A stretch of 64,000 nucleotides of DNA from Sulfurovum sp. Lineage in GTDB: Bacteria > Campylobacterota > Campylobacteria > Campylobacterales > Sulfurovaceae. The notes beneath the pieces are model-generated. The model was given only the letters and a program-made list of their open reading frames with translations. It did not search any database and had not been told where the DNA came from. Shown here piece after piece: positions 13,656-21,541 of this stretch (its first letter is position 1; every line of letters starts with the position of its first letter). A program made the position numbers and the translations under genes. Location of the stretch: positions 9,960 to 73,959 of the forward strand of contig DYMX01000001.1 in assembly GCA_020721345.1 (NCBI GenBank), read 5' to 3'.

Positions 13656-16600
13656 CTAACTTTCAAAGAAACCGAGCTCTTTTGCTTTTTCCAAAAAAGA
13701 TTCATTAACACTATACGAAGATTCGATTATGATGTCTGCTAATTTACTCTTGATACAAATTGATAATGGATGCTGACCTAAATTTTCTTTTGCTAGATTG
13801 TACAATGTATTGATTTTATCCAAACTACTCTTTAGCATTATGCAAACTGTTACTGTTTTATACACAATCTCTTCTTTTTCAGTCTTGATAATATTGTTTT
13901 TTTCTTTTTTTGCATCTTTTAAACTAAGTATTTTCATAGGATTTACTTTTATAGAATCGCCGTCTTTTGCAATTTTTACCTTAAAACATACAGGCTTAGA
14001 TAGGTCAAAATCCTCTTTTAGTTCATTAAGCTTATCTTCAAAAAGCCTTATTTCTATATTTCCGTGCAGGTCAAGAAGTTTAATTATCCCAAACTTATTG
14101 CCTTTTTTAGATATTTTTTCATTTACTTCTTCTATTTTACCGATCAATAATGTAGTAGAGCCTTCTTTTAGCGTTTCGATTTCAGAACTTAATGTAAAAT
14201 CAATACTTTCTATATCATTTCTATATTTATCAAGCGGATGACCGGATATATAAAATCCCATGGTCTCTTTTTCAAGCTCCAAAACGCTAAGTTGATCAAA
14301 CTCATCCATATCTTTAATGTTAAGTTGCACATCCGTCATATTTTCAGATTCTTCAAAAAGAGACCCAATGGACATTTTTTTAGCTAACGCCGCTTTAGCC
14401 GAAGCTTCTAATATCTCTTCTATTTGTGAAAGCATTGCTTTTCTTGTAAATCCAAACGAATCCAATGCGCCGGATTTTATAAGCGCTTCTATAACTTTTT
14501 TATTTACTTTTGATGGATCTATTCTGCCTAAAAAGTCATCAAGAGATTCAAATTCTCCTTCGCTCCTAGCTTCAACAATTATATTTATAGCGCTTTCTCC
14601 GACACCTTTAATTGCGCCTAGTCCAAATAAAATAACATCACTGTCGTTAATCCTATCGGCAACAAAAACCAAGTCCGACCTGTTTATATCTGGCGCAACA
14701 AGATCGATATTCATTTTTTTAAGTTCATCACTATATTTTACGATCTTATCCGTATTGTCCTTCTCTAAAGTCAGCAGCGCCGCCATAAATTCCGTTGGAT
14801 AAAAACACTTTAGATATGAAGTATAAAATGTTATCATAGCATACGCGGCAGAATGAGATTTGTTAAAACCATAACCTGCAAACATAACAATGAGATCAAA
14901 TAGTTCCTCTGCTTTTGTTCTATCAAAGCCTTTTTTTTCAGCACCATTGGCAAAATCAACTTGAAGCTTATCCATCTCTTCTTTAATTTTATGGCCCATT
15001 GCGCGGCGTACTAGATCGGCGCCTCCAAGCGAAAAGCCGCCTATTGTCTGGACTATCTGCATAACCTGTTCCTGATAGACTATAACTCCATAAGTCGGCT
15101 TAAGTATCGGTTCAAGTTCTGGGAACATATAGGTTATTTCCGCTCTGCCGTGCTTTCTTTCTACGAAGTCGTCCAGCATACCTGATTCCATGGGACCAGG
15201 TCTAAAAAGCGCCAACATCGCGATAACATCTTCAAAACCCGACGGCTTTAGTTTCTTTGCAAGGTCTTGCATGCCTGAAGACTCTATTTGGAACAATCCC
15301 AATGTGTGTCCTGTGCTTATATAATCATATATCTCTTTTTTGTTTATATCCTCTGTGGCAAAATCTATTCTTTTGCCGTAGCGTTTCTCAACAAGTTTAT
15401 TTGCTTCATCAATTACCGTAAGCGTCTTTAGCCCCAAAAAGTCAAATTTGATCAGGTCAACATCTTCTATATATTTACCGCTGTATTGAGTAGCAACCGT
15501 ATCCATTCCAGACGGTTTAAAAAGCGGTGTTTTAGACCATAACGGCTCATTTGATATAACAACTCCTGCGGCATGCGTTCCTGCATTGCGGTTTAGTCCT
15601 TCTAAAGCTTTTGCAAACTCCCAAACCTGCGCATATTTCTCATCACTTGATATAAACTCTGCGATTTTCGGCTCTTTTTTATATGAGTTTTCAAGATCAA
15701 TTCCAAGTTCATCAGGAATTAACTTTGCAAATGCATCTGCTTTTGCGTATGGAACATCCAGAACTCTTGCAACATCCCTTATGACACCCTTTGCAAGCAA
15801 TTTACCGAACGTTATTATCTGCGCAACATTTTCCCTGCCGTACCTGTCTACTACATAATCGATTATCTCTTGTCTTCTCGACTGACAAAAGTCCATATCG
15901 ATATCCGGCATCGATATTCTTTCAGGATTTAGAAATCTCTCAAAAAGCAGCCCATATGGAATTGGATCAATATCTGTAATTTTAAGACTAAATGCAACAA
16001 GCGATCCAGCGGCCGACCCTCTTCCTGGACCTACAGGTATCCCCATCTCTTTTGCTGCCCTGACAAAATCCCAAACTATAAGCATATAGCCGGGAAATTT
16101 CATATTTTTAATTATTTCTATTTCAACACCAAGCCTATCTCTATATTCATCATATTGTGAAGTGTTTATATTTTTTAGTCTATCTTCTAAGCCTTTTTTT
16201 GCTTCATATTCAAAAAGTATCGCATCATTTTCAAGCGAATACTCTTCATTGACAAACGGCAGATCAAGGTTGTTCATCATTGCCATTTCTCTGCAAAATT
16301 TAAAATTAGGCGGTGTTGGATTGCCAAGCTTTATTTCCAAATTGCATTTCTCTACGATCTCCCCAGTATTTGCAACGGCTTCTGGGATGTCTGCAAAAAG
16401 TCTTGCAATATCTTCTGGGGATTTGACATAGAACTCATGAACAGAATGTCTAAGACGATTGGGATCGTCGTAGAGTTTATTCATGGCTATACACATAAAT
16501 GCTTCATGGGCATCGGCATCATTTTGACTATTATAGTGAGTATCATTTGTTGCGATGACCTTTATGCCCGTCTCGTTCGCGATCTTAAGTATAAGATTAT

Positions 16601-17183
16601 CAATCCTGTGCTGATCTGGAATGCCATGCCTCATAAGCTCAAGATAAAAATCATCGCCAAATATTTCTTTATACTCAAGCGCTATTTTTTTTGCCTCTTC
16701 ATATCCTTTTGCGCCAAAACTTTTATTTCTATCGTTTTCATTTAGATGCCAATTCACTTCGCCTTGCAAGCAGGCGCTTGAACAAACTAGTCCTTCGCCA
16801 TGCTCTCTAAGCAATTGTTTGTTTATCCTTGGATAGTAGTAGAAACCCTCAAGGTATGCTTTTGAGCTAAGATACATTAGATTTTTATATCCCGTTTCAT
16901 TTTTAGCATATAAGCATAGATGAAATCTCTGTCTTGTTGTTTTATCTCCCAATTCATCATTGTTGTGCAGATAACACTCCATACCGATAATAGGCTTTAT
17001 GCCCTCTTTTTTCATGGTCGTATAAAAATCAATTGCTCCGAACATATTGCCGTGATCTGTCATTGCAACAGCGTTCATTCCAAGCTTTTTGATCGTTTTT
17101 GCTAAGTTTTTTATCTTATTTGCGCCATCTAACAATGAGTATTCGGTATGAAGATGAAGGTGCGTGAAATTTATCTCAGACAT
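13656..17183 (-). CDS. dnaE: DNA polymerase III, alpha subunit
   Basis: 1175 aa. PHP domain (FTHLHLHTEYSLLDG), polymerase core (PDIDMDF) and an OB-fold tail. Confidence 0.95.
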   Translation of the reverse strand: MSEINFTHLHLHTEYSLLDGANKIKNLAKTIKKLGMNAVAMTDHGNMFGAIDFYTTMKKEGIKPIIGMECYLHNNDELGDKTTRQRFHLCLYAKNETGYKNLMYLSSKAYLEGFYYYPRINKQLLREHGEGLVCSSACLQGEVNWHLNENDRNKSFGAKGYEEAKKIALEYKEIFGDDFYLELMRHGIPDQHRIDNLILKIANETGIKVIATNDTHYNSQNDADAHEAFMCIAMNKLYDDPNRLRHSVHEFYVKSPEDIARLFADIPEAVANTGEIVEKCNLEIKLGNPTPPNFKFCREMAMMNNLDLPFVNEEYSLENDAILFEYEAKKGLEDRLKNINTSQYDEYRDRLGVEIEIIKNMKFPGYMLIVWDFVRAAKEMGIPVGPGRGSAAGSLVAFSLKITDIDPIPYGLLFERFLNPERISMPDIDMDFCQSRRQEIIDYVVDRYGRENVAQIITFGKLLAKGVIRDVARVLDVPYAKADAFAKLIPDELGIDLENSYKKEPKIAEFISSDEKYAQVWEFAKALEGLNRNAGTHAAGVVISNEPLWSKTPLFKPSGMDTVATQYSGKYIEDVDLIKFDFLGLKTLTVIDEANKLVEKRYGKRIDFATEDINKKEIYDYISTGHTLGLFQIESSGMQDLAKKLKPSGFEDVIAMLALFRPGPMESGMLDDFVERKHGRAEITYMFPELEPILKPTYGVIVYQEQVMQIVQTIGGFSLGGADLVRRAMGHKIKEEMDKLQVDFANGAEKKGFDRTKAEELFDLIVMFAGYGFNKSHSAAYAMITFYTSYLKCFYPTEFMAALLTLEKDNTDKIVKYSDELKKMNIDLVAPDINRSDLVFVADRINDSDVILFGLGAIKGVGESAINIIVEARSEGEFESLDDFLGRIDPSKVNKKVIEALIKSGALDSFGFTRKAMLSQIEEILEASAKAALAKKMSIGSLFEESENMTDVQLNIKDMDEFDQLSVLELEKETMGFYISGHPLDKYRNDIESIDFTLSSEIETLKEGSTTLLIGKIEEVNEKISKKGNKFGIIKLLDLHGNIEIRLFEDKLNELKEDFDLSKPVCFKVKIAKDGDSIKVNPMKILSLKDAKKEKNNIIKTEKEEIVYKTVTVCIMLKSSLDKINTLYNLAKENLGQHPLSICIKSKLADIIIESSYSVNESFLEKAKELGFFES

Positions 17184-17333: not shown

Positions 17334-17726
17334 CTAATCATAATTAAAAATGAAATCAACACCAAAAAGAGTTTCATTGATGCATGTAGAAAACATTGAG
17401 TGTGTAAAATCACCCCTCAGCTCTTCTACTTTCTCCATTAGTTTTGCAATATTCAGTAGTGAATAATCCTCTGATATATGATAAATAACAGCAACGCTTT
17501 TACCGCTTTTTAGCATATTCTCTATCTGTGTCAATATCGCTTCCTGGGCGACATCTGGAGATATTTTACTTTTGGCGCTATAACATACAAGAGCCGAATC
17601 TTTTCCAAAGCAGTCTACCAACTCTGATTTTACCAACTGTATCGTGTTTATTTGATATTTGCATAAATACTTGATAAATTCATCATAATTACTAAAAATT
17701 CTTTGTGAGACCTCTTTATCACTCAT
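17334..17726 (-). CDS. hypothetical protein (130 aa), island A
   Basis: Start set at the ATG 17726-17724, preceded by AAAAAGGAGCAAAA. It has its own promoter with the shared 19-bp operator. I recognise no motif. Confidence 0.55.
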   Translation of the reverse strand: MSDKEVSQRIFSNYDEFIKYLCKYQINTIQLVKSELVDCFGKDSALVCYSAKSKISPDVAQEAILTQIENMLKSGKSVAVIYHISEDYSLLNIAKLMEKVEELRGDFTHSMFSTCINETLFGVDFIFNYD

Positions 17727-17760
17727 TTTTGCTCCTTTTTTAGAAAGTATAATAAAATAA

Positions 17761-17779
17761 GTGGACAAAAAGTGTCTAG
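17761..17779. promoter_or_regulatory. 19-bp palindromic operator, copy 1 (minus-strand reading CTAGACACTTTTTGTCCAC)
   Basis: On the minus strand it is followed by exactly 9 nt and then TATACT (17751-17746), then AAGGAG and the ATG of the 130-aa gene. It is near-identical to copy 2 at 19392-19410. Confidence 0.55.
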
Positions 17780-18411
17780 TTATATTTATTTCTTATTTTA
17801 AAGACTACGGCACAATATGTGTCAGTATCATCATTTTCACTTACGATTCCGCATTTTTGTAAATGCATTTCTATAGTAAAATCACCACCAAGTTCTTTTC
17901 TTGCACTTTCGTAAATATTCTTTATTTGTTTAGTTAGTTCATCCTTTCCGCTGCCCTTACTGTAGTTTATTGATATATAAAAAGCAATAAGACCGAATTG
18001 AAAATCAGACAAGTCGGTTTTTCTGTTTAAAACCTCTTTGATTCTAGTTACATCAATTTTTATATTTTCATATGTACAAACACTATTTTTTACTTCAATT
18101 ACAGCTCTAGGTGTCCCACCTGCCCACCATAGGACTATATCAAATCTACCGTTTTCTCTTACGTCTGGATGCATTCTTCCTGCACCTGTGGCCTTTGCAA
18201 TATCCATCGTTTTTCTAACATTATCTTCAAGAGTAATGTATTTATTTTTATCAATTCTATTGAGCTCTTTTGCGATATTCACTGTCAATAAATATTCTGG
18301 CGCATTCCACAGCCACTCTCCATCACTCCACTCAATGTACTCTTCATGTGAATCTATGATTGCCTTAAGTGTACTATCTACGACTTCATTCATTGATAAT
18401 TGACTTGCCAT
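17776..18411 (-). CDS. PD-(D/E)xK nuclease-like protein (211 aa), island A
   Basis: GRFDIVLWW (Asp on a beta-strand) is followed about 17 aa later by AVIEVKN (E-x-K), with an upstream acidic helix (APEYLLTVNIAKEL). This is the classical restriction-endonuclease-fold signature. The call rests on motifs only. Confidence 0.55.
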   Translation of the reverse strand: MASQLSMNEVVDSTLKAIIDSHEEYIEWSDGEWLWNAPEYLLTVNIAKELNRIDKNKYITLEDNVRKTMDIAKATGAGRMHPDVRENGRFDIVLWWAGGTPRAVIEVKNSVCTYENIKIDVTRIKEVLNRKTDLSDFQFGLIAFYISINYSKGSGKDELTKQIKNIYESARKELGGDFTIEMHLQKCGIVSENDDTDTYCAVVFKIRNKYN

Positions 18412-18466
18412 ATTTTTCTACCTTTAAATTTTATCTTCCAAAATTATACACCTATCGACCAAAAAC

Positions 18467-18850
18467 TTAATCTTCATCAAGCCAGTTTTTAAACTCACTT
18501 ATCATCTCGTATCTTTTATAGTCCTTGCAATCACTACAAAAATACACCATTGTTTTTTTGACAACACCATCTGTAAGCCTCACATCAATACACTCTCTAT
18601 AATAATGCTCTGGATACCCCTCAAGCTCATCCAGAGATGACAAGACCACATCATCAACAGAATAAACCTCGCCTTTTATATGATATCCTTCTCCTTTGAT
18701 ATTTACAAGATGTGGATAAGCTGGAGATTGTAGTATCATTGGATATTTCTTCATGGTTATTGCATTGCCTACAAAAATGGAGCTAGCTAGATAGCCATCA
18801 TGATTTGCAAAACCTTTTTTTAGTGTACCGTAAACAAATATTTCATGCAC
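18467..18850 (-). CDS. gamma-glutamylcyclotransferase-like (AIG2/GGACT family) protein
   Basis: N-terminal FVYGTLKKG (the YGSL-type motif) and LDELEGYPEHYYR carrying the candidate catalytic Glu. The 127-aa length fits the family. Confidence 0.7.
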   Translation of the reverse strand: MHEIFVYGTLKKGFANHDGYLASSIFVGNAITMKKYPMILQSPAYPHLVNIKGEGYHIKGEVYSVDDVVLSSLDELEGYPEHYYRECIDVRLTDGVVKKTMVYFCSDCKDYKRYEMISEFKNWLDED

Positions 18851-19358
18851 AAATTACCCTTTTTGTATATGCAACCATCATGCGAACAGATTCATCATCA
18901 TCTTTAGCTAACTCTTCTAAGATGTAAACAGGTGTGGATTTGTTAAGCGCAACTTTCATACGAATATTTTTATCTTCTTCCCGTGAAAGTAGTTCTAAAA
19001 TTTCTAATGGACAATTAGGGTTTATGGCAACGGCTTTGCGGACACCACTGTCATTGTCTATAGCCAATTTCTCTAAAATATCTATCGGTGTTCTTGTATT
19101 GAATGCAACTGATCCTCGTATAATCTCATTGTTATTTTGCACCAATTCTCTTAATGTATTCAATGGTGTATTTATATTTTGAGCGACCATCTCTTGAATA
19201 CACCAATTATCATTTTTTGCCAATTTCTCCAGAATAATGCTTGGAGTATATTTATTTTTAGCGGCTTTATAAAGGAGATATAACTTCTTGTCTTTTTTCA
19301 ATTCGGCATAAGAGCGGAGTACCATTCTTATTGTTTCTTCACGGTCATTTTTATCCAT
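18843..19358 (-). CDS. leucine-rich-repeat-variant (LRV)/HEAT-like repeat protein
   Basis: About five tandem 23-25-aa repeats of the form TP..iLe.LA.D.d..VR..VA.N (for example TPIDILEKLAIDNDSGVRKAVAIN and TPVYILEELAKDDDESVRMMVAYT). Its stop overlaps the GGCT-like start by 8 nt. Confidence 0.65.
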   Translation of the reverse strand: MDKNDREETIRMVLRSYAELKKDKKLYLLYKAAKNKYTPSIILEKLAKNDNWCIQEMVAQNINTPLNTLRELVQNNNEIIRGSVAFNTRTPIDILEKLAIDNDSGVRKAVAINPNCPLEILELLSREEDKNIRMKVALNKSTPVYILEELAKDDDESVRMMVAYTKRVICA

Positions 19359-19391
19359 TTTGTACCTTTTTGTGTAATTATATATTTTTAA

Positions 19392-19410
19392 CTAGACACA
19401 AAGTGTCCAC
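19392..19410. promoter_or_regulatory. 19-bp palindromic operator, copy 2 (plus-strand reading CTAGACACAAAGTGTCCAC), shared by divergent promoters
   Basis: On the minus strand there are 9 nt and then TATAAT (19382-19377) for the LRV operon. On the plus strand there are 9 nt and then TGTCATAAT (hexamer 19420-19425) for the 19453 gene. Confidence 0.55.
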
Positions 19411-19452
19411 ATAATTTGTCATAATTTTGCAAAACCAACATATAGGCAAAAT

Positions 19453-20004
19453 ATGAATCAAAAAATTACAAAACTATCCGATGATTATTTACAAATCCTA
19501 AGACTTATAGAGGGGCTAAATGATAAAAATATATTTAAGTCTTTTGAAAATACCTTGCGAGTTCAAGACGGGATATTAAATCTCTTTGATAGTCTCTACT
19601 ACTTAGTAGGTGACAACAAAGATATAACATCAAATAAAAACATTATTTTAGATATGTTTGATTTTCAAAATTTTCTCAACACTTATAGGCTAACCACTAT
19701 TATACAAAGAGCTATTGAGCTTGGCGCAACCATGCAACACTTTACATTTGATGACTTCATGCTGCTTGTTGGCTTGGGCGACAAAGATATAAATATAGTT
19801 TTGGCATCAAGCAAATACATCAATGATGAAGTTGCGCGAAAAATTTTCAAACCAATTGTATATAAAGTTCTTGATAATCTATTTTTAAATGATGTATTGA
19901 GTATAGAATTTAAAAAAGAACTTTTAGCCTTTCTTTGCGAAGATGAAAATAAAAAATCAAGCACCTGCCAATTATTGATAAATAAATATAAACATTTAAA
20001 GTAA
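19453..20004 (+). CDS. hypothetical protein (183 aa), island A
   Basis: An ORF with good length, divergent from the LRV operon and sharing its operator. It appears all-helical and I recognise no motif. Confidence 0.5.
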   Translation: MNQKITKLSDDYLQILRLIEGLNDKNIFKSFENTLRVQDGILNLFDSLYYLVGDNKDITSNKNIILDMFDFQNFLNTYRLTTIIQRAIELGATMQHFTFDDFMLLVGLGDKDINIVLASSKYINDEVARKIFKPIVYKVLDNLFLNDVLSIEFKKELLAFLCEDENKKSSTCQLLINKYKHLK

Positions 20005-20015
20005 TGGTGATTTTT

Positions 20016-20915
20016 CTAAATAGAAATGCTTTCCATATATTCCCCTATCCTCTCCTTAACTTCATCAGCCAACCACTCTGGCTCCAAAACTCTCACGTAA
20101 GGGATACTTGAGAGAATGATAGGCATTATCTCCATCTCATTTGTTATCTCTACGGTTATCTCGACTGAGCCATCGCTGTCTTTGCCTGTGATACTTTGAG
20201 TTTTGAGCGGTTTTCTCTCAAAATAGACTATATAATCTTTATCTACCATAAGTTTTACATCAAACGGTTCGGTATCAAGCTGAAACCAAATAGAGTTTGC
20301 TTTTTTTAATCTCTCTTCTAGCTCTATGTTTGTATCAAAAACTTTGTCGATAATGGTTAGATTTTCTATGGATTTGATGTGAAACTTTTTAAATCTATCT
20401 TTACTTTTTACATCAAGAGCCAAAAGATACCAAAAACCATCAAAAAAAGCCAATTTGAGCGGCTTAAGTGTGAATTTTGTTTGTGGGTAAGTCATAGTAA
20501 TGATATGCTTAGCATTGATAGCTTTTTCCAACTCCATAAAATATGTTATATGGCTTTGACTCAAACTCTCACTTCTGTTATATGCAAATATATGGTGGTC
20601 TATATTTTGAGATAGTTCGCTTATGAGCATATGGGCTTTGCCATAAAACTCCGCGCCCACACCTTTTGCCATCTCGTCAAGAATAGCTAAAACTGTTTTT
20701 TCACTACTATCTACTTGTGTGCTTGTTTTATCTATACATAATTTTTTGCCATCTTTAATGATACCATTTTTGGATAGTATCTGCACAAAATCTCTCTGTA
20801 TTGTCTTTGTGCTTACTCCAAGATAAGCTGCCAACTCACTCATAGAAGATGGAGTTGCTTGAAGTATCTTATATACAGTATCTATTCTATTAAATCTATT
20901 ATTATCTATGGTCAT
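20016..20915 (-). CDS. WYL-domain transcriptional regulator (wHTH-WYL-WCX architecture, BrxR/CapW-like)
   Basis: N-terminal HTH (MSELAAYLGVSTKTIQRDFVQL-like). WYL core (ITMTYPQ...LKLAFFDGFWYLLALDVKSKDRFKKFHIKSI). C-terminal WCX-like end (DGSVEITVEI...IPYVRVLEPEWLADEVKERI). Confidence 0.8.
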   Translation of the reverse strand: MTIDNNRFNRIDTVYKILQATPSSMSELAAYLGVSTKTIQRDFVQILSKNGIIKDGKKLCIDKTSTQVDSSEKTVLAILDEMAKGVGAEFYGKAHMLISELSQNIDHHIFAYNRSESLSQSHITYFMELEKAINAKHIITMTYPQTKFTLKPLKLAFFDGFWYLLALDVKSKDRFKKFHIKSIENLTIIDKVFDTNIELEERLKKANSIWFQLDTEPFDVKLMVDKDYIVYFERKPLKTQSITGKDSDGSVEITVEITNEMEIMPIILSSIPYVRVLEPEWLADEVKERIGEYMESISI

Positions 20916-20962
20916 TTCAGACTATATCAGAAATGAGGTAAAGAAGAGAAGAGAAAGAAGTT

Positions 20963-20988
20963 AAACCATACCATAATCGGTATGGTTT
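20963..20988 (-). terminator. rho-independent terminator after the lipoprotein gene
   Basis: On the minus strand, AAACCATACC-GATTAT-GGTATGGTTT forms a perfect 10-bp stem followed by a T-rich tract (TTTAACTTCTTTCTCTTC). Confidence 0.6.
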
Positions 20989-21010
20989 ATTGTATTTTAA
21001 GGCAGACCTA

Positions 21011-21472
21011 TTATCTACACTGACTATAGCCGTTGTTCCAACCGTTTCTGTAGCTATAATTACGGTTATATTGATATGTATTTTTTCTTGTGCCTACATA
21101 TCTTCTAGACCAGCACCCGTCGGAATAACCATTGTTATATGAAGTATTGCCATAGCCACCGCCGCTACCGCCATAACTGCAACGATTGTAGCCGGAATTC
21201 CATCCTTCTCTGTAACTATAGTTGCGATTATATTGATAAGTATTTTTTCTCCATGTACCTCTTTTTGAGCTACATCCGTCTTGAACACCGTTTCTATAGT
21301 ATGAATCCCTGTTGGCTCCATAATTATAACCATCATAATAATACGCATCATTATTTGCGACACCACCGGTTAATGCATTTGCAACAACGGCTTGCTCATA
21401 TGCAGTACAACCGCCAAATATACCAGCGGCAAACAAAGACACTAAAACTAAGTAAAACTTCGAAATTTTCAT
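21011..21472 (-). CDS. Tyr/Asn/Gly-rich lipoprotein with an internal tandem duplication
   Basis: Start at the ATG 21472-21470 after AAGGAGAAAAA. Signal peptide with lipobox (AAGIFGG-C). There are two copies of DGC..(K/R)R....RKNTYQYNRNYSYR.GWN.GY..C. Confidence 0.6.
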   Translation of the reverse strand: MKISKFYLVLVSLFAAGIFGGCTAYEQAVVANALTGGVANNDAYYYDGYNYGANRDSYYRNGVQDGCSSKRGTWRKNTYQYNRNYSYREGWNSGYNRCSYGGSGGGYGNTSYNNGYSDGCWSRRYVGTRKNTYQYNRNYSYRNGWNNGYSQCR

Positions 21473-21541
21473 TTTTTCTCCTTTATATTTTAGCAATGAT
21501 ACATCATATTAATTTAAATGCATATTAAAAAATTAATCTAA

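Follow-up and report, generated by a model that had tools for sequence, protein, structure and literature searches.

The Tin protein of Escherichia phage P2 is encoded by one of the oldest known phage-exclusion genes, and its mechanism is known only as the poisoning of T4 gp32. Tin blocks T-even phages and was reported to poison their single-stranded DNA (ssDNA)-binding protein (PMC8594841), and cloned old-tin genes provide immunity to a range of phages (PMC9122126). A second group of proteins relevant to this study comprises the regulators of the BrxR family, which are described as co-localising with diverse defence systems and islands (PMC9122601). We analyzed a 64-kb stretch of DNA from Sulfurovum sp. 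(contig DYMX01000001.1; hereafter, the window) that contains, next to dnaE, six genes labelled A to F (Table 1), among them a Tin-like gene (B) and a gene for a WYL-type regulator (F). Loci of relatives used for comparison are designated by L-numbers. The six genes form, with reasonable probability, a small chromosomal defence islet under one WYL-type regulator, arranged round an effector of the Tin family with PD-(D/E)xK-like features. This interpretation is preferred because defence islands and mobile elements are where B relatives are found in other Campylobacterota, because few genomes carry the family, and because B diverges between genomes in a manner that its neighbours do not.

B matches the Tin model of PADLOC (PDLC02359) with an E-value of 1.2e-10, residues 8-182 being aligned to positions 3-198 of the 239 positions of the profile (about 82% of the model). 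The same model matches all 32 aligned relatives of B, the best of them at 1.9e-13. An hhalign comparison of the B-family profile with P2 Tin gave an E-value of 5e-4 over 171 columns, with a probability of only 31%. In the multiple alignment, the motif PEY..TV.I, an acidic residue in strand 1, and the motifs GRxDI, IE[VIL]K and DI.R are in register and in the same order in B and P2 Tin. The first of these motifs reads PEY or TEY in this alignment, and members from Methyloprofundus, a Flavobacteriales metagenome-assembled genome (MAG) and Oceanispirochaeta bridge B and P2 Tin in the alignment. When P2 Tin was used as the query, P2 alone was recovered from the phage collection. B, like A and E, has no match above threshold to a Pfam, NCBIfam or PHROG family. 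On the combined profile and motif evidence, B is placed in the family of P2 Tin, and as such the putative effector is not an undescribed one. An earlier reading of the window, made from the sequence only, had expected no PADLOC match and had proposed an undescribed system; both expectations fail at B, whose family, with all 32 relatives matched and motifs common to P2 Tin, is already represented in PADLOC.

The same sequence-only reading had pointed to a D...ExK signature in B and had named B as the effector. The signature (GRFDIVLWW...AVIEVKN) is genuine: among 32 homologues, D91, E106-x-K108, E39 and E62 are all invariant. This invariance of catalytic-type residues over 32 diverse sequences implies that B is under purifying selection. 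The AlphaFold2 model of B (mean predicted local distance difference test score, pLDDT, 92.1; predicted template modelling score 0.90) displays a helix (residues 39-51), three strands (58-64, 89-96 and 100-108), a second helix (118-129) and a further strand (139-149), in the order alpha-beta-beta-beta-alpha-beta. E39 is positioned on helix 1, D91 on strand 2, and E106 and K108 on strand 3, which corresponds to the order of the restriction-endonuclease core. The sub-threshold Pfam matches of the B family belong almost all to the PD-(D/E)xK clan, with HSDR_N_2 found for 13 of the 32 sequences, VRR_NUC for 12 and HSDR_N for five. The assignment of B as a PD-(D/E)xK-like protein is thus supported, rather than proven, by motif and topology; nuclease activity is predicted on the same grounds, and B is the best candidate for the effector of the islet.

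The B family is rare and patchy. A word-indexed search of 5.8 billion proteins yielded 166 matches to B, nearly all from Campylobacterota (126-229 amino acids, aa, among the matches listed), and a scan of 185,579 species genomes yielded 20 B loci, 14 of them in Campylobacterota. The neighbourhoods of B vary greatly, and most resemble defence loci or mobile elements. In L024, the relative of B lies in an island with an integrase and a D5 primase. In Aliarcobacter butzleri (L025:7001-9611; JAODEA010000007), a four-gene cassette is inserted within the hydrogenase-maturation operon, between hypD and hypE, and encodes a B-like protein, a YhcG/DUF1016 nuclease, an NAD-binding protein and a MazG-like protein; the B-YhcG-MazG arrangement recurs in L042, L043 and L046. 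Nitrosophilus alvini (L032; AP022847) carries B near MazE/PIN, GIY-YIG, WYL and McrBC genes, whereas B is near dynamin-like GTPases, DUF2779 and a type I restriction-modification (R-M) system in L033, and near HepT/MNT in L096. Other contexts include PDDEXK_4 and Macro genes (L003), an Eco57I-type R-M system (L019), AIPR (L045) and two C5 methylases (L070). The MazF-like and HsdR-like neighbours of some B relatives were assigned by reading of the sequence alone. The sequence-only reading had named patchy distribution and co-occurrence with other defence genes as points to check, and the rarity of the B relatives and their placement amid R-M, McrBC, AIPR, toxin-antitoxin and integrase genes agree with both. 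A distant B/Tin-like clade of about 33% identity (L018 and L079-L090, e.g., L079:5842-6549), represented by a Magnetovibrio MAG (L018) and otherwise by metagenome contigs, keeps the motifs PEYLLTVN, GRCDI and FEIK.

A comparison with close relatives reveals that B differs from its surroundings in its mode of evolution. L012 (Sulfurovum sp. enrichment culture clone C5) and L036, which is the same as L069 (a JGI contig), are fully syntenic with the window, in the order pckA-F-E-C-B-A-dnaE and beyond, and all open reading frames (ORFs) are intact in these relatives. The flanking proteins are 84-94% identical between the window and the relatives and A, C, E and F 57-69%, but B only 42%; DnaE is 90% identical between the very genomes whose B proteins are 42% identical. 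At the DNA level, the first ~65 and the last ~14 codons of B align, whereas the centre and C-terminal part do not (window 17818-18217 versus L012:6763-7174). This pattern looks like the replacement of an allele by recombination or the outcome of strong diversifying selection, and two allele types of B are found in metagenomes, one P0054/L012-like and the other of the window type (P0002-like). D is absent from L012, L036 and L069 despite the otherwise full synteny. Its presence in the window corresponds to a scar-free, gene-sized indel between the shared promoter and C (window 18849-19366 versus L012:6127-6137).

F contains an HTH_11 domain (residues 11-51), a WYL domain (125-187; 3.5e-8) and a WCX domain (217-292; 4.3e-12) according to Pfam, in line with the architecture of a winged helix-turn-helix, WYL and WCX that had been read from the sequence, and it is matched by the WYL models of PADLOC at 2.2e-25. 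A profile of six B-linked F orthologues was compared with the Protein Data Bank (PDB), and the matches found were PafBC (6sj9; 1e-7), DriD (8tp8; 4e-5), BrxR (7qfz; 5e-5) and CapW (9c5g; 5e-3). F appears to resemble the four about equally weakly. In the predicted helix-turn-helix segment of the six orthologues, T38 and R41 are invariant and the consensus reads RTIQRD. WYL genes of the F type accompany B in six lineages: orthologues of 31-58% identity lie beside B in L012/L036, L003, L032, L029-31 and L096, with the stop codon of the WYL gene overlapping the start of B in L003. WYL-like C-terminal fragments are also present just upstream of B in L010/L059 and in L037.

A repeat analysis revealed similarity between the upstream regions of A and D, each of which holds a palindrome (O2 and O1, respectively; Table 1). 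The motif, [AG]GACA-N5-6-TGTC[CTA], is located ~35-75 nucleotides (nt) upstream of most transcription units around B. In its strict form it occurs at two sites only in the window, O1 and O2, both in the islet; the pattern GACAC-N3-6-GTGTC has one match in the window. Both sites end a few bases upstream of a -10-like hexamer and therefore overlap the -35 position. O1 and O2 are kept at equivalent places in L012 and L036, and the O2 site is also found before the A orthologue of L035. Downstream of the WYL gene of L032 there are two copies of the motif, one preceding a 336-aa gene and the other an operon with a 122-aa gene, an ADP-ribosylglycohydrolase gene and B. L096 likewise has two copies, one where the WYL gene ends (3' end), ~140 nt ahead of the unit of a 220-aa gene and B, and the other before a 153-aa gene. 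The WYL-B operon of L003 and the B operons of L005 and L033 are preceded by the motif, which in L037 is near the start of the contig, upstream of a 602-aa gene that precedes B. L029 has a variant, TGACA...TGTCA, ahead of a transcription unit comprising a 304-aa gene, B, a 200-aa gene and the WYL gene. When the 160-nt stretches preceding the B operons of 45 loci were searched automatically (7.4 kb in total), six contained the motif; the remaining 375 kb contained about 10 sites, mostly second operators of the same islets.

AGACA-N5-6-TGTCC is also present on two short, unrelated contigs (at L092:610-624 and L093:580-595), ~42-45 nt upstream of E-like genes that are 42% and 32% identical to E, respectively. 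The E family would thus belong to the regulon of the operator, even where a contig displays no B gene. From these placements, we infer that the palindrome is probably the operator of the F family and that A, D-C-B and E constitute one regulon. Gating of the locus at the level of transcription by its WYL protein, as originally proposed, is consistent with the WYL genes that travel with B in six lineages and with the palindromes before A and in the divergent promoter of D-C-B and E.

The other genes of the islet are associated with B to different degrees. C is a clear member of the Pfam family GGACT (PF06094; 2.9e-25, 89.6 bits against a cut-off of 22.8), and it matches PHROG 2520 at 1.4e-19 and human GGACT (3jub) at 4e-13. 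The YGTLK motif is conserved between C and the human enzyme, and the Glu of LDELE in C lies opposite the catalytic E82. Among the ~45-55 Campylobacterota B loci examined, C-type GGACT genes adjoin B in four lineages and in both gene orders: B-C with a 3-nt gap in Sulfurimonas (L005), C-B with a 14-nt overlap in a member of the Helicobacteraceae (L017), and also in L012/L036. C is therefore a recurrent but optional partner of B. A literature search for a link between GGCT, GGACT or AIG2 enzymes and anti-phage defence found nothing relevant.

D matches the Pfam families LRV (1.6e-12, 47.4 bits against a cut-off of 21.6) and HEAT (29.5 against 23.5). Among the loci fetched, a Zoogloeaceae MAG (L016:12487-14686) is the only other place in which LRV and Tin-like genes occur together; three tandem LRV paralogues, with E-values to D of up to 1.5e-47, are found there 2-4 kb from a B-like gene. 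A has three homologues only, all Sulfurovum-like and all adjoining dnaE. For E, the word-indexed search yielded three homologues, and an exhaustive HMMER search of 1.84 billion representatives yielded 10 clusters. PDB profile searches with A and E returned noise only, and none of A, C, D and E has a match in PADLOC. An AlphaFold2 model of A, built from an alignment of three sequences, was unusable (pLDDT 55.7).

Elsewhere, the immediate neighbour of B encodes an ADP-ribosylglycohydrolase, YhcG, DUF2779 or a 220-aa protein that is conserved. A cluster headed by a WYL gene and adjacent to McrBC (L032:3617-9036) has B between an ADP-ribosylglycohydrolase gene on its upstream side, to which it is coupled in translation, and a downstream gene for a PP2C phosphatase; the hydrolase-B pair recurs in L077, and in L003 a Macro-domain gene is located ~4 kb from B on the opposite strand. 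The 220-aa protein, which has no Pfam match, is encoded immediately upstream of B in two Sulfurimonas-like genomes (L005:9348-10010 and L096:6336-6998; 67% identical) and is another candidate partner of B. Taken together, B is constant, the WYL gene often accompanies it, C recurs as an optional partner and D is cargo specific to the strain. For the individual genes, the sequence-only reading proved accurate: the six ORFs are where it placed them and every domain call holds, including the GGCT/AIG2-like nature of C (Pfam GGACT, YGTLK and the catalytic-type Glu), the LRV/HEAT repeats of D and its 8-nt overlap with C, and the lack of any recognisable motif in A and E, for which Pfam, PADLOC, PHROG and NCBIfam give no match. 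Its proposal that the six act as a single system fared less well, since the closest syntenic relatives lack D, A and E are found in only a handful of sequences, and C lies beside B in only four lineages.

Table 1. Genes, operator-like sites and right-hand border of the islet, with positions in the window
Feature	Position	Strand	Size or sequence	Description
A	17334-17768	(-)	144 aa from TTG; 130 aa from ATG at 17726 (17334-17726)	
B	17776-18411	(-)	211 aa	Tin-family, PD-(D/E)xK-like; conserved core, probable effector
C	18467-18850	(-)	127 aa	GGACT/AIG2-like gamma-glutamyl(amine) cyclotransferase-fold enzyme
D	18843-19358	(-)	171 aa	LRV/HEAT-repeat protein; first gene of the D-C-B unit
E	19453-20004	(+)	183 aa	Divergent from D-C-B, convergent with F; no family match
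F	20016-20915	(-)	299 aa	HTH-WYL-WCX transcription regulator; likely controller of the islet
O1	19393-19409		TAGACACAAAGTGTCCA	Operator-like palindrome; D/E divergent promoter
O2	17762-17778		TGGACAAAAAGTGTCTA	Operator-like palindrome upstream of A, with -10-like TATTAT; overlaps the B stop codon
Hairpin	20962-20989		Perfect 11-bp stem	Between the lipoprotein-like gene and F; terminator-like; right-hand transcriptional border

A is an orphan with a promoter of its own that bears the operator-like site, and lies immediately upstream of dnaE. The start of A is likely the ATG at 17726, because the -10-like TATTAT and the palindrome fall within the longer, TTG-initiated ORF. On the left, the islet is flanked by dnaE (13656-17183) and icd and, on the right, by the lipoprotein-like gene and genes for a cytochrome c, a histidine kinase, a response regulator and pckA. 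Its guanine-plus-cytosine content (0.29-0.35) is slightly lower than that of dnaE (0.35-0.42). The absence of an integrase, tRNA genes and direct repeats at the borders, noted by the sequence-only reading, was borne out by a tRNA scan, negative for the entire window, and by a repeat analysis of the islet borders; no integrase was found there. The arms of the right-hand hairpin, ATAAACCAT and ATGGTTTAT, are conserved in L012. The hairpin was considered as an operator of F and rejected; it does not share the palindrome motif and reads better as the terminator of the lipoprotein-like gene. The latter encodes a protein of 161 aa (window 21011-21496, (-)) with an internally duplicated module rich in Tyr, Asn and Arg, RKNTYQYNRNYSYREGWNSGYNRC and RKNTYQYNRNYSYRNGWNNGYSQC. 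The protein is ~71% conserved in L012 and has no family match in Pfam, PADLOC, PHROGs or NCBIfam.

As a working mechanism for the defence islet, F would bind the palindrome and hold E, D-C-B and A off. By analogy with DriD, PafBC, BrxR and CapW, a ligand derived from infection or DNA damage, probably a nucleic-acid species, would reach the WYL domain of F, and this signal would release or activate the regulator. B would then act as an abortive-infection effector, either a nuclease or a replication poison, and might be triggered by, or target, the single-strand-binding or replication complex of the phage, in analogy to the poisoning of T4 gp32 by Tin. C would be accessory and dispensable, and may reverse a modification that either was imposed by the phage or controls B. 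The remaining genes, A, D and E, would be lineage-specific cargo of the same regulon. The role given to C is suggested by the ADP-ribosylglycohydrolase and PP2C genes that take its place in other lineages; that C is such an 'eraser' enzyme is speculation, to which we assign a low probability. A broader form of the idea, equally speculative and in our opinion rather doubtful, is that Tin-family PD-(D/E)xK-like proteins form a class of modular, WYL-gated defence cassettes whose nuclease-like core is repeatedly paired with a modification-removing enzyme. The paired enzyme might remove from DNA or protein a modification imposed by the phage, which would allow the core to act, or might keep the core inactive until infection.

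Several observations weigh against the interpretation of the locus as a defence islet. BLASTP detects no similarity between B and P2 Tin, the link being found only at the profile level, and no homologues of B were found among INPHARED phages and PLSDB plasmids by tblastn or in a scan of IMG/VR. A Foldseek search of the PDB with the B model gave no match at E-values of 1e-3 or below (best TM-score 0.31; NucC, 6q1h, ranks 39th with an E-value of 0.07), and a search of BFVD returned only weak matches, labelled PD-(D/E)XK (E-values of 1.6e-3 to 5e-2), so that the predicted nuclease fold of B stands on motif and topology. Of the biochemistry of P2 Tin, the poisoning of gp32 alone is known, which leaves the analogy with little mechanistic weight. 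F is a transcription unit separate from B, and its upstream region contains no palindrome. The correspondence between regulator and motif is also incomplete: the motif-bearing loci L005 and L033 have no WYL gene within 7-10 kb, and the WYL-linked loci L044 and L064 do not have the motif. Finally, the islet occupies an identical site in all three Sulfurovum-like lineages examined, and the distant B-like clade is fixed, at 12 loci, between a gene read as dapB and dnaJ-dnaK, which is a housekeeping-like, non-defence context.

The last two points bear on a different interpretation, in which the locus is a housekeeping, SOS-independent regulon for DNA damage or stress, F is an ssDNA-sensing activator like DriD or PafBC, B is a repair or processing nuclease, and the position next to dnaE is meaningful. 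The profile of F fits PafBC and DriD at least as well as BrxR and CapW. An operator at the -35 position is compatible with PafBC-type activation, and thus fits it as well as it fits repression. The syntenic location beside dnaE in three related lineages and the dapB/dnaJ context of the distant clade agree with a housekeeping role, and B is beside dnaE in L006 also. However, B of L006 is at the 3' end of dnaE and the islet of the window at the 5' end, which makes these different sites; the same difference led us to reject an insertion hotspot adjacent to dnaE. Relatives of B located elsewhere are amid R-M, McrBC, AIPR, toxin-antitoxin and integrase genes. The family is both rare and patchily distributed, the set of genes in the regulon varies from lineage to lineage, and B is 42% identical where DnaE is 90% identical. 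We consider a regulon of this kind quite unlikely.

Another possibility is that all six genes form one novel multi-component defence system, with B as nuclease effector, D as sensor or scaffold, C as an enzyme acting on a small-molecule or peptide-amine conjugate, A and E as essential subunits and F as gate. The palindrome common to A, D-C-B and E suggests co-regulation, D and C are translationally coupled, C adjoins B in four lineages, and LRV genes accompany a B-like gene in L016. Against this arrangement, L012, L036 and L069 lack D although they are otherwise syntenic, A and E do not extend beyond a few Sulfurovum-like sequences or ~10 clusters among 1.84 billion representatives, and most B loci are without any of A, C, D and E. 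E-like genes are behind the operator without B on L092 and L093, 1.5-kb contigs that are too short to exclude a B gene nearby. In addition, one member of the B family, P2 tin, was reported to block T-even phages (PMC8594841, PMC9122126). A single six-gene system is likewise quite unlikely. The least likely proposal is a chance juxtaposition of unrelated accessory genes in a permissive intergenic site, with the palindrome as a promoter element or chance repeat and B as an inactive relic: the motif is short (two matches of GACACTTTNTGTC, with one mismatch allowed, were reached in three of 100 shuffles, and ~1.2 matches to a looser pattern are expected per 64 kb) and the contexts of B are highly variable, but at least eight independent loci, from different genera, have the motif at equivalent promoter positions, and the regions upstream of B operons are strongly enriched in it. 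The catalytic-type residues of B are invariant over 32 diverse sequences, and the relatives have all ORFs intact.

The preferred interpretation, a defence islet round a Tin-family effector, would have consequences for proteins beyond this locus. The invariant E/D/ExK residues of a diverse chromosomal clade suggest that Tin proteins are nucleases and point to the residues to mutate. The palindrome and the WYL regulator offer a regulator-operator pair for studying how WYL proteins switch defence in Campylobacterota, a phylum that, to our knowledge, has few characterised defence regulators and is largely without LexA. If the modular-cassette idea were true, it would provide a testable biochemical framework and a conserved operator-regulator pair for Tin, the product of a decades-old exclusion gene. 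We found no description in the literature of an endonuclease-type signature across the Tin family, of a chromosomal Tin-like clade in Campylobacterota, of the conserved operator, or of the recurrent pairing of Tin-like genes with GGACT or other eraser enzymes.

The locus is not a categorically new system, and its parts are of known kinds (Tin, BrxR/CapW-type and GGACT). C shares YGTLK and the catalytic-type Glu with human GGACT and the phage GGCT-like proteins of PHROG 2520; by comparison with GGACT, it is a minimal bacterial protein, and in four lineages its gene adjoins or overlaps that of a Tin-like protein. B displays the E...D...ExK signature and the core order of the PD-(D/E)xK nucleases, such as HSDR_N, VRR-NUC and NucC-like effectors, but passes no Pfam family threshold and has no significant structural neighbour in the PDB. 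F has the same HTH-WYL-WCX architecture as the BrxR/CapW-type regulators, of which DriD and PafBC are non-defence relatives. It resembles them also in its co-localisation with defence-type genes and in the palindromes of the promoters that it presumably controls; it differs in being a separate, convergent gene, rather than the first gene of the controlled operon, and in its low similarity to all solved WYL regulators. The closest counterpart of B is Tin of Escherichia phage P2, which it resembles in motif order and in length (~205-253 aa). P2 Tin and some distant members carry an insert between strand 1 and strand 2, whereas B does not. B is not carried by a prophage or satellite defence hotspot, although one relative, that of L024, does lie in an island with an integrase and a D5 primase. 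The P2 tin gene sits on a P2-like prophage next to old, whereas B is chromosomal in Campylobacterota, next to dnaE, and has, in contrast to P2 Tin, a linked WYL regulator and often a partner enzyme.

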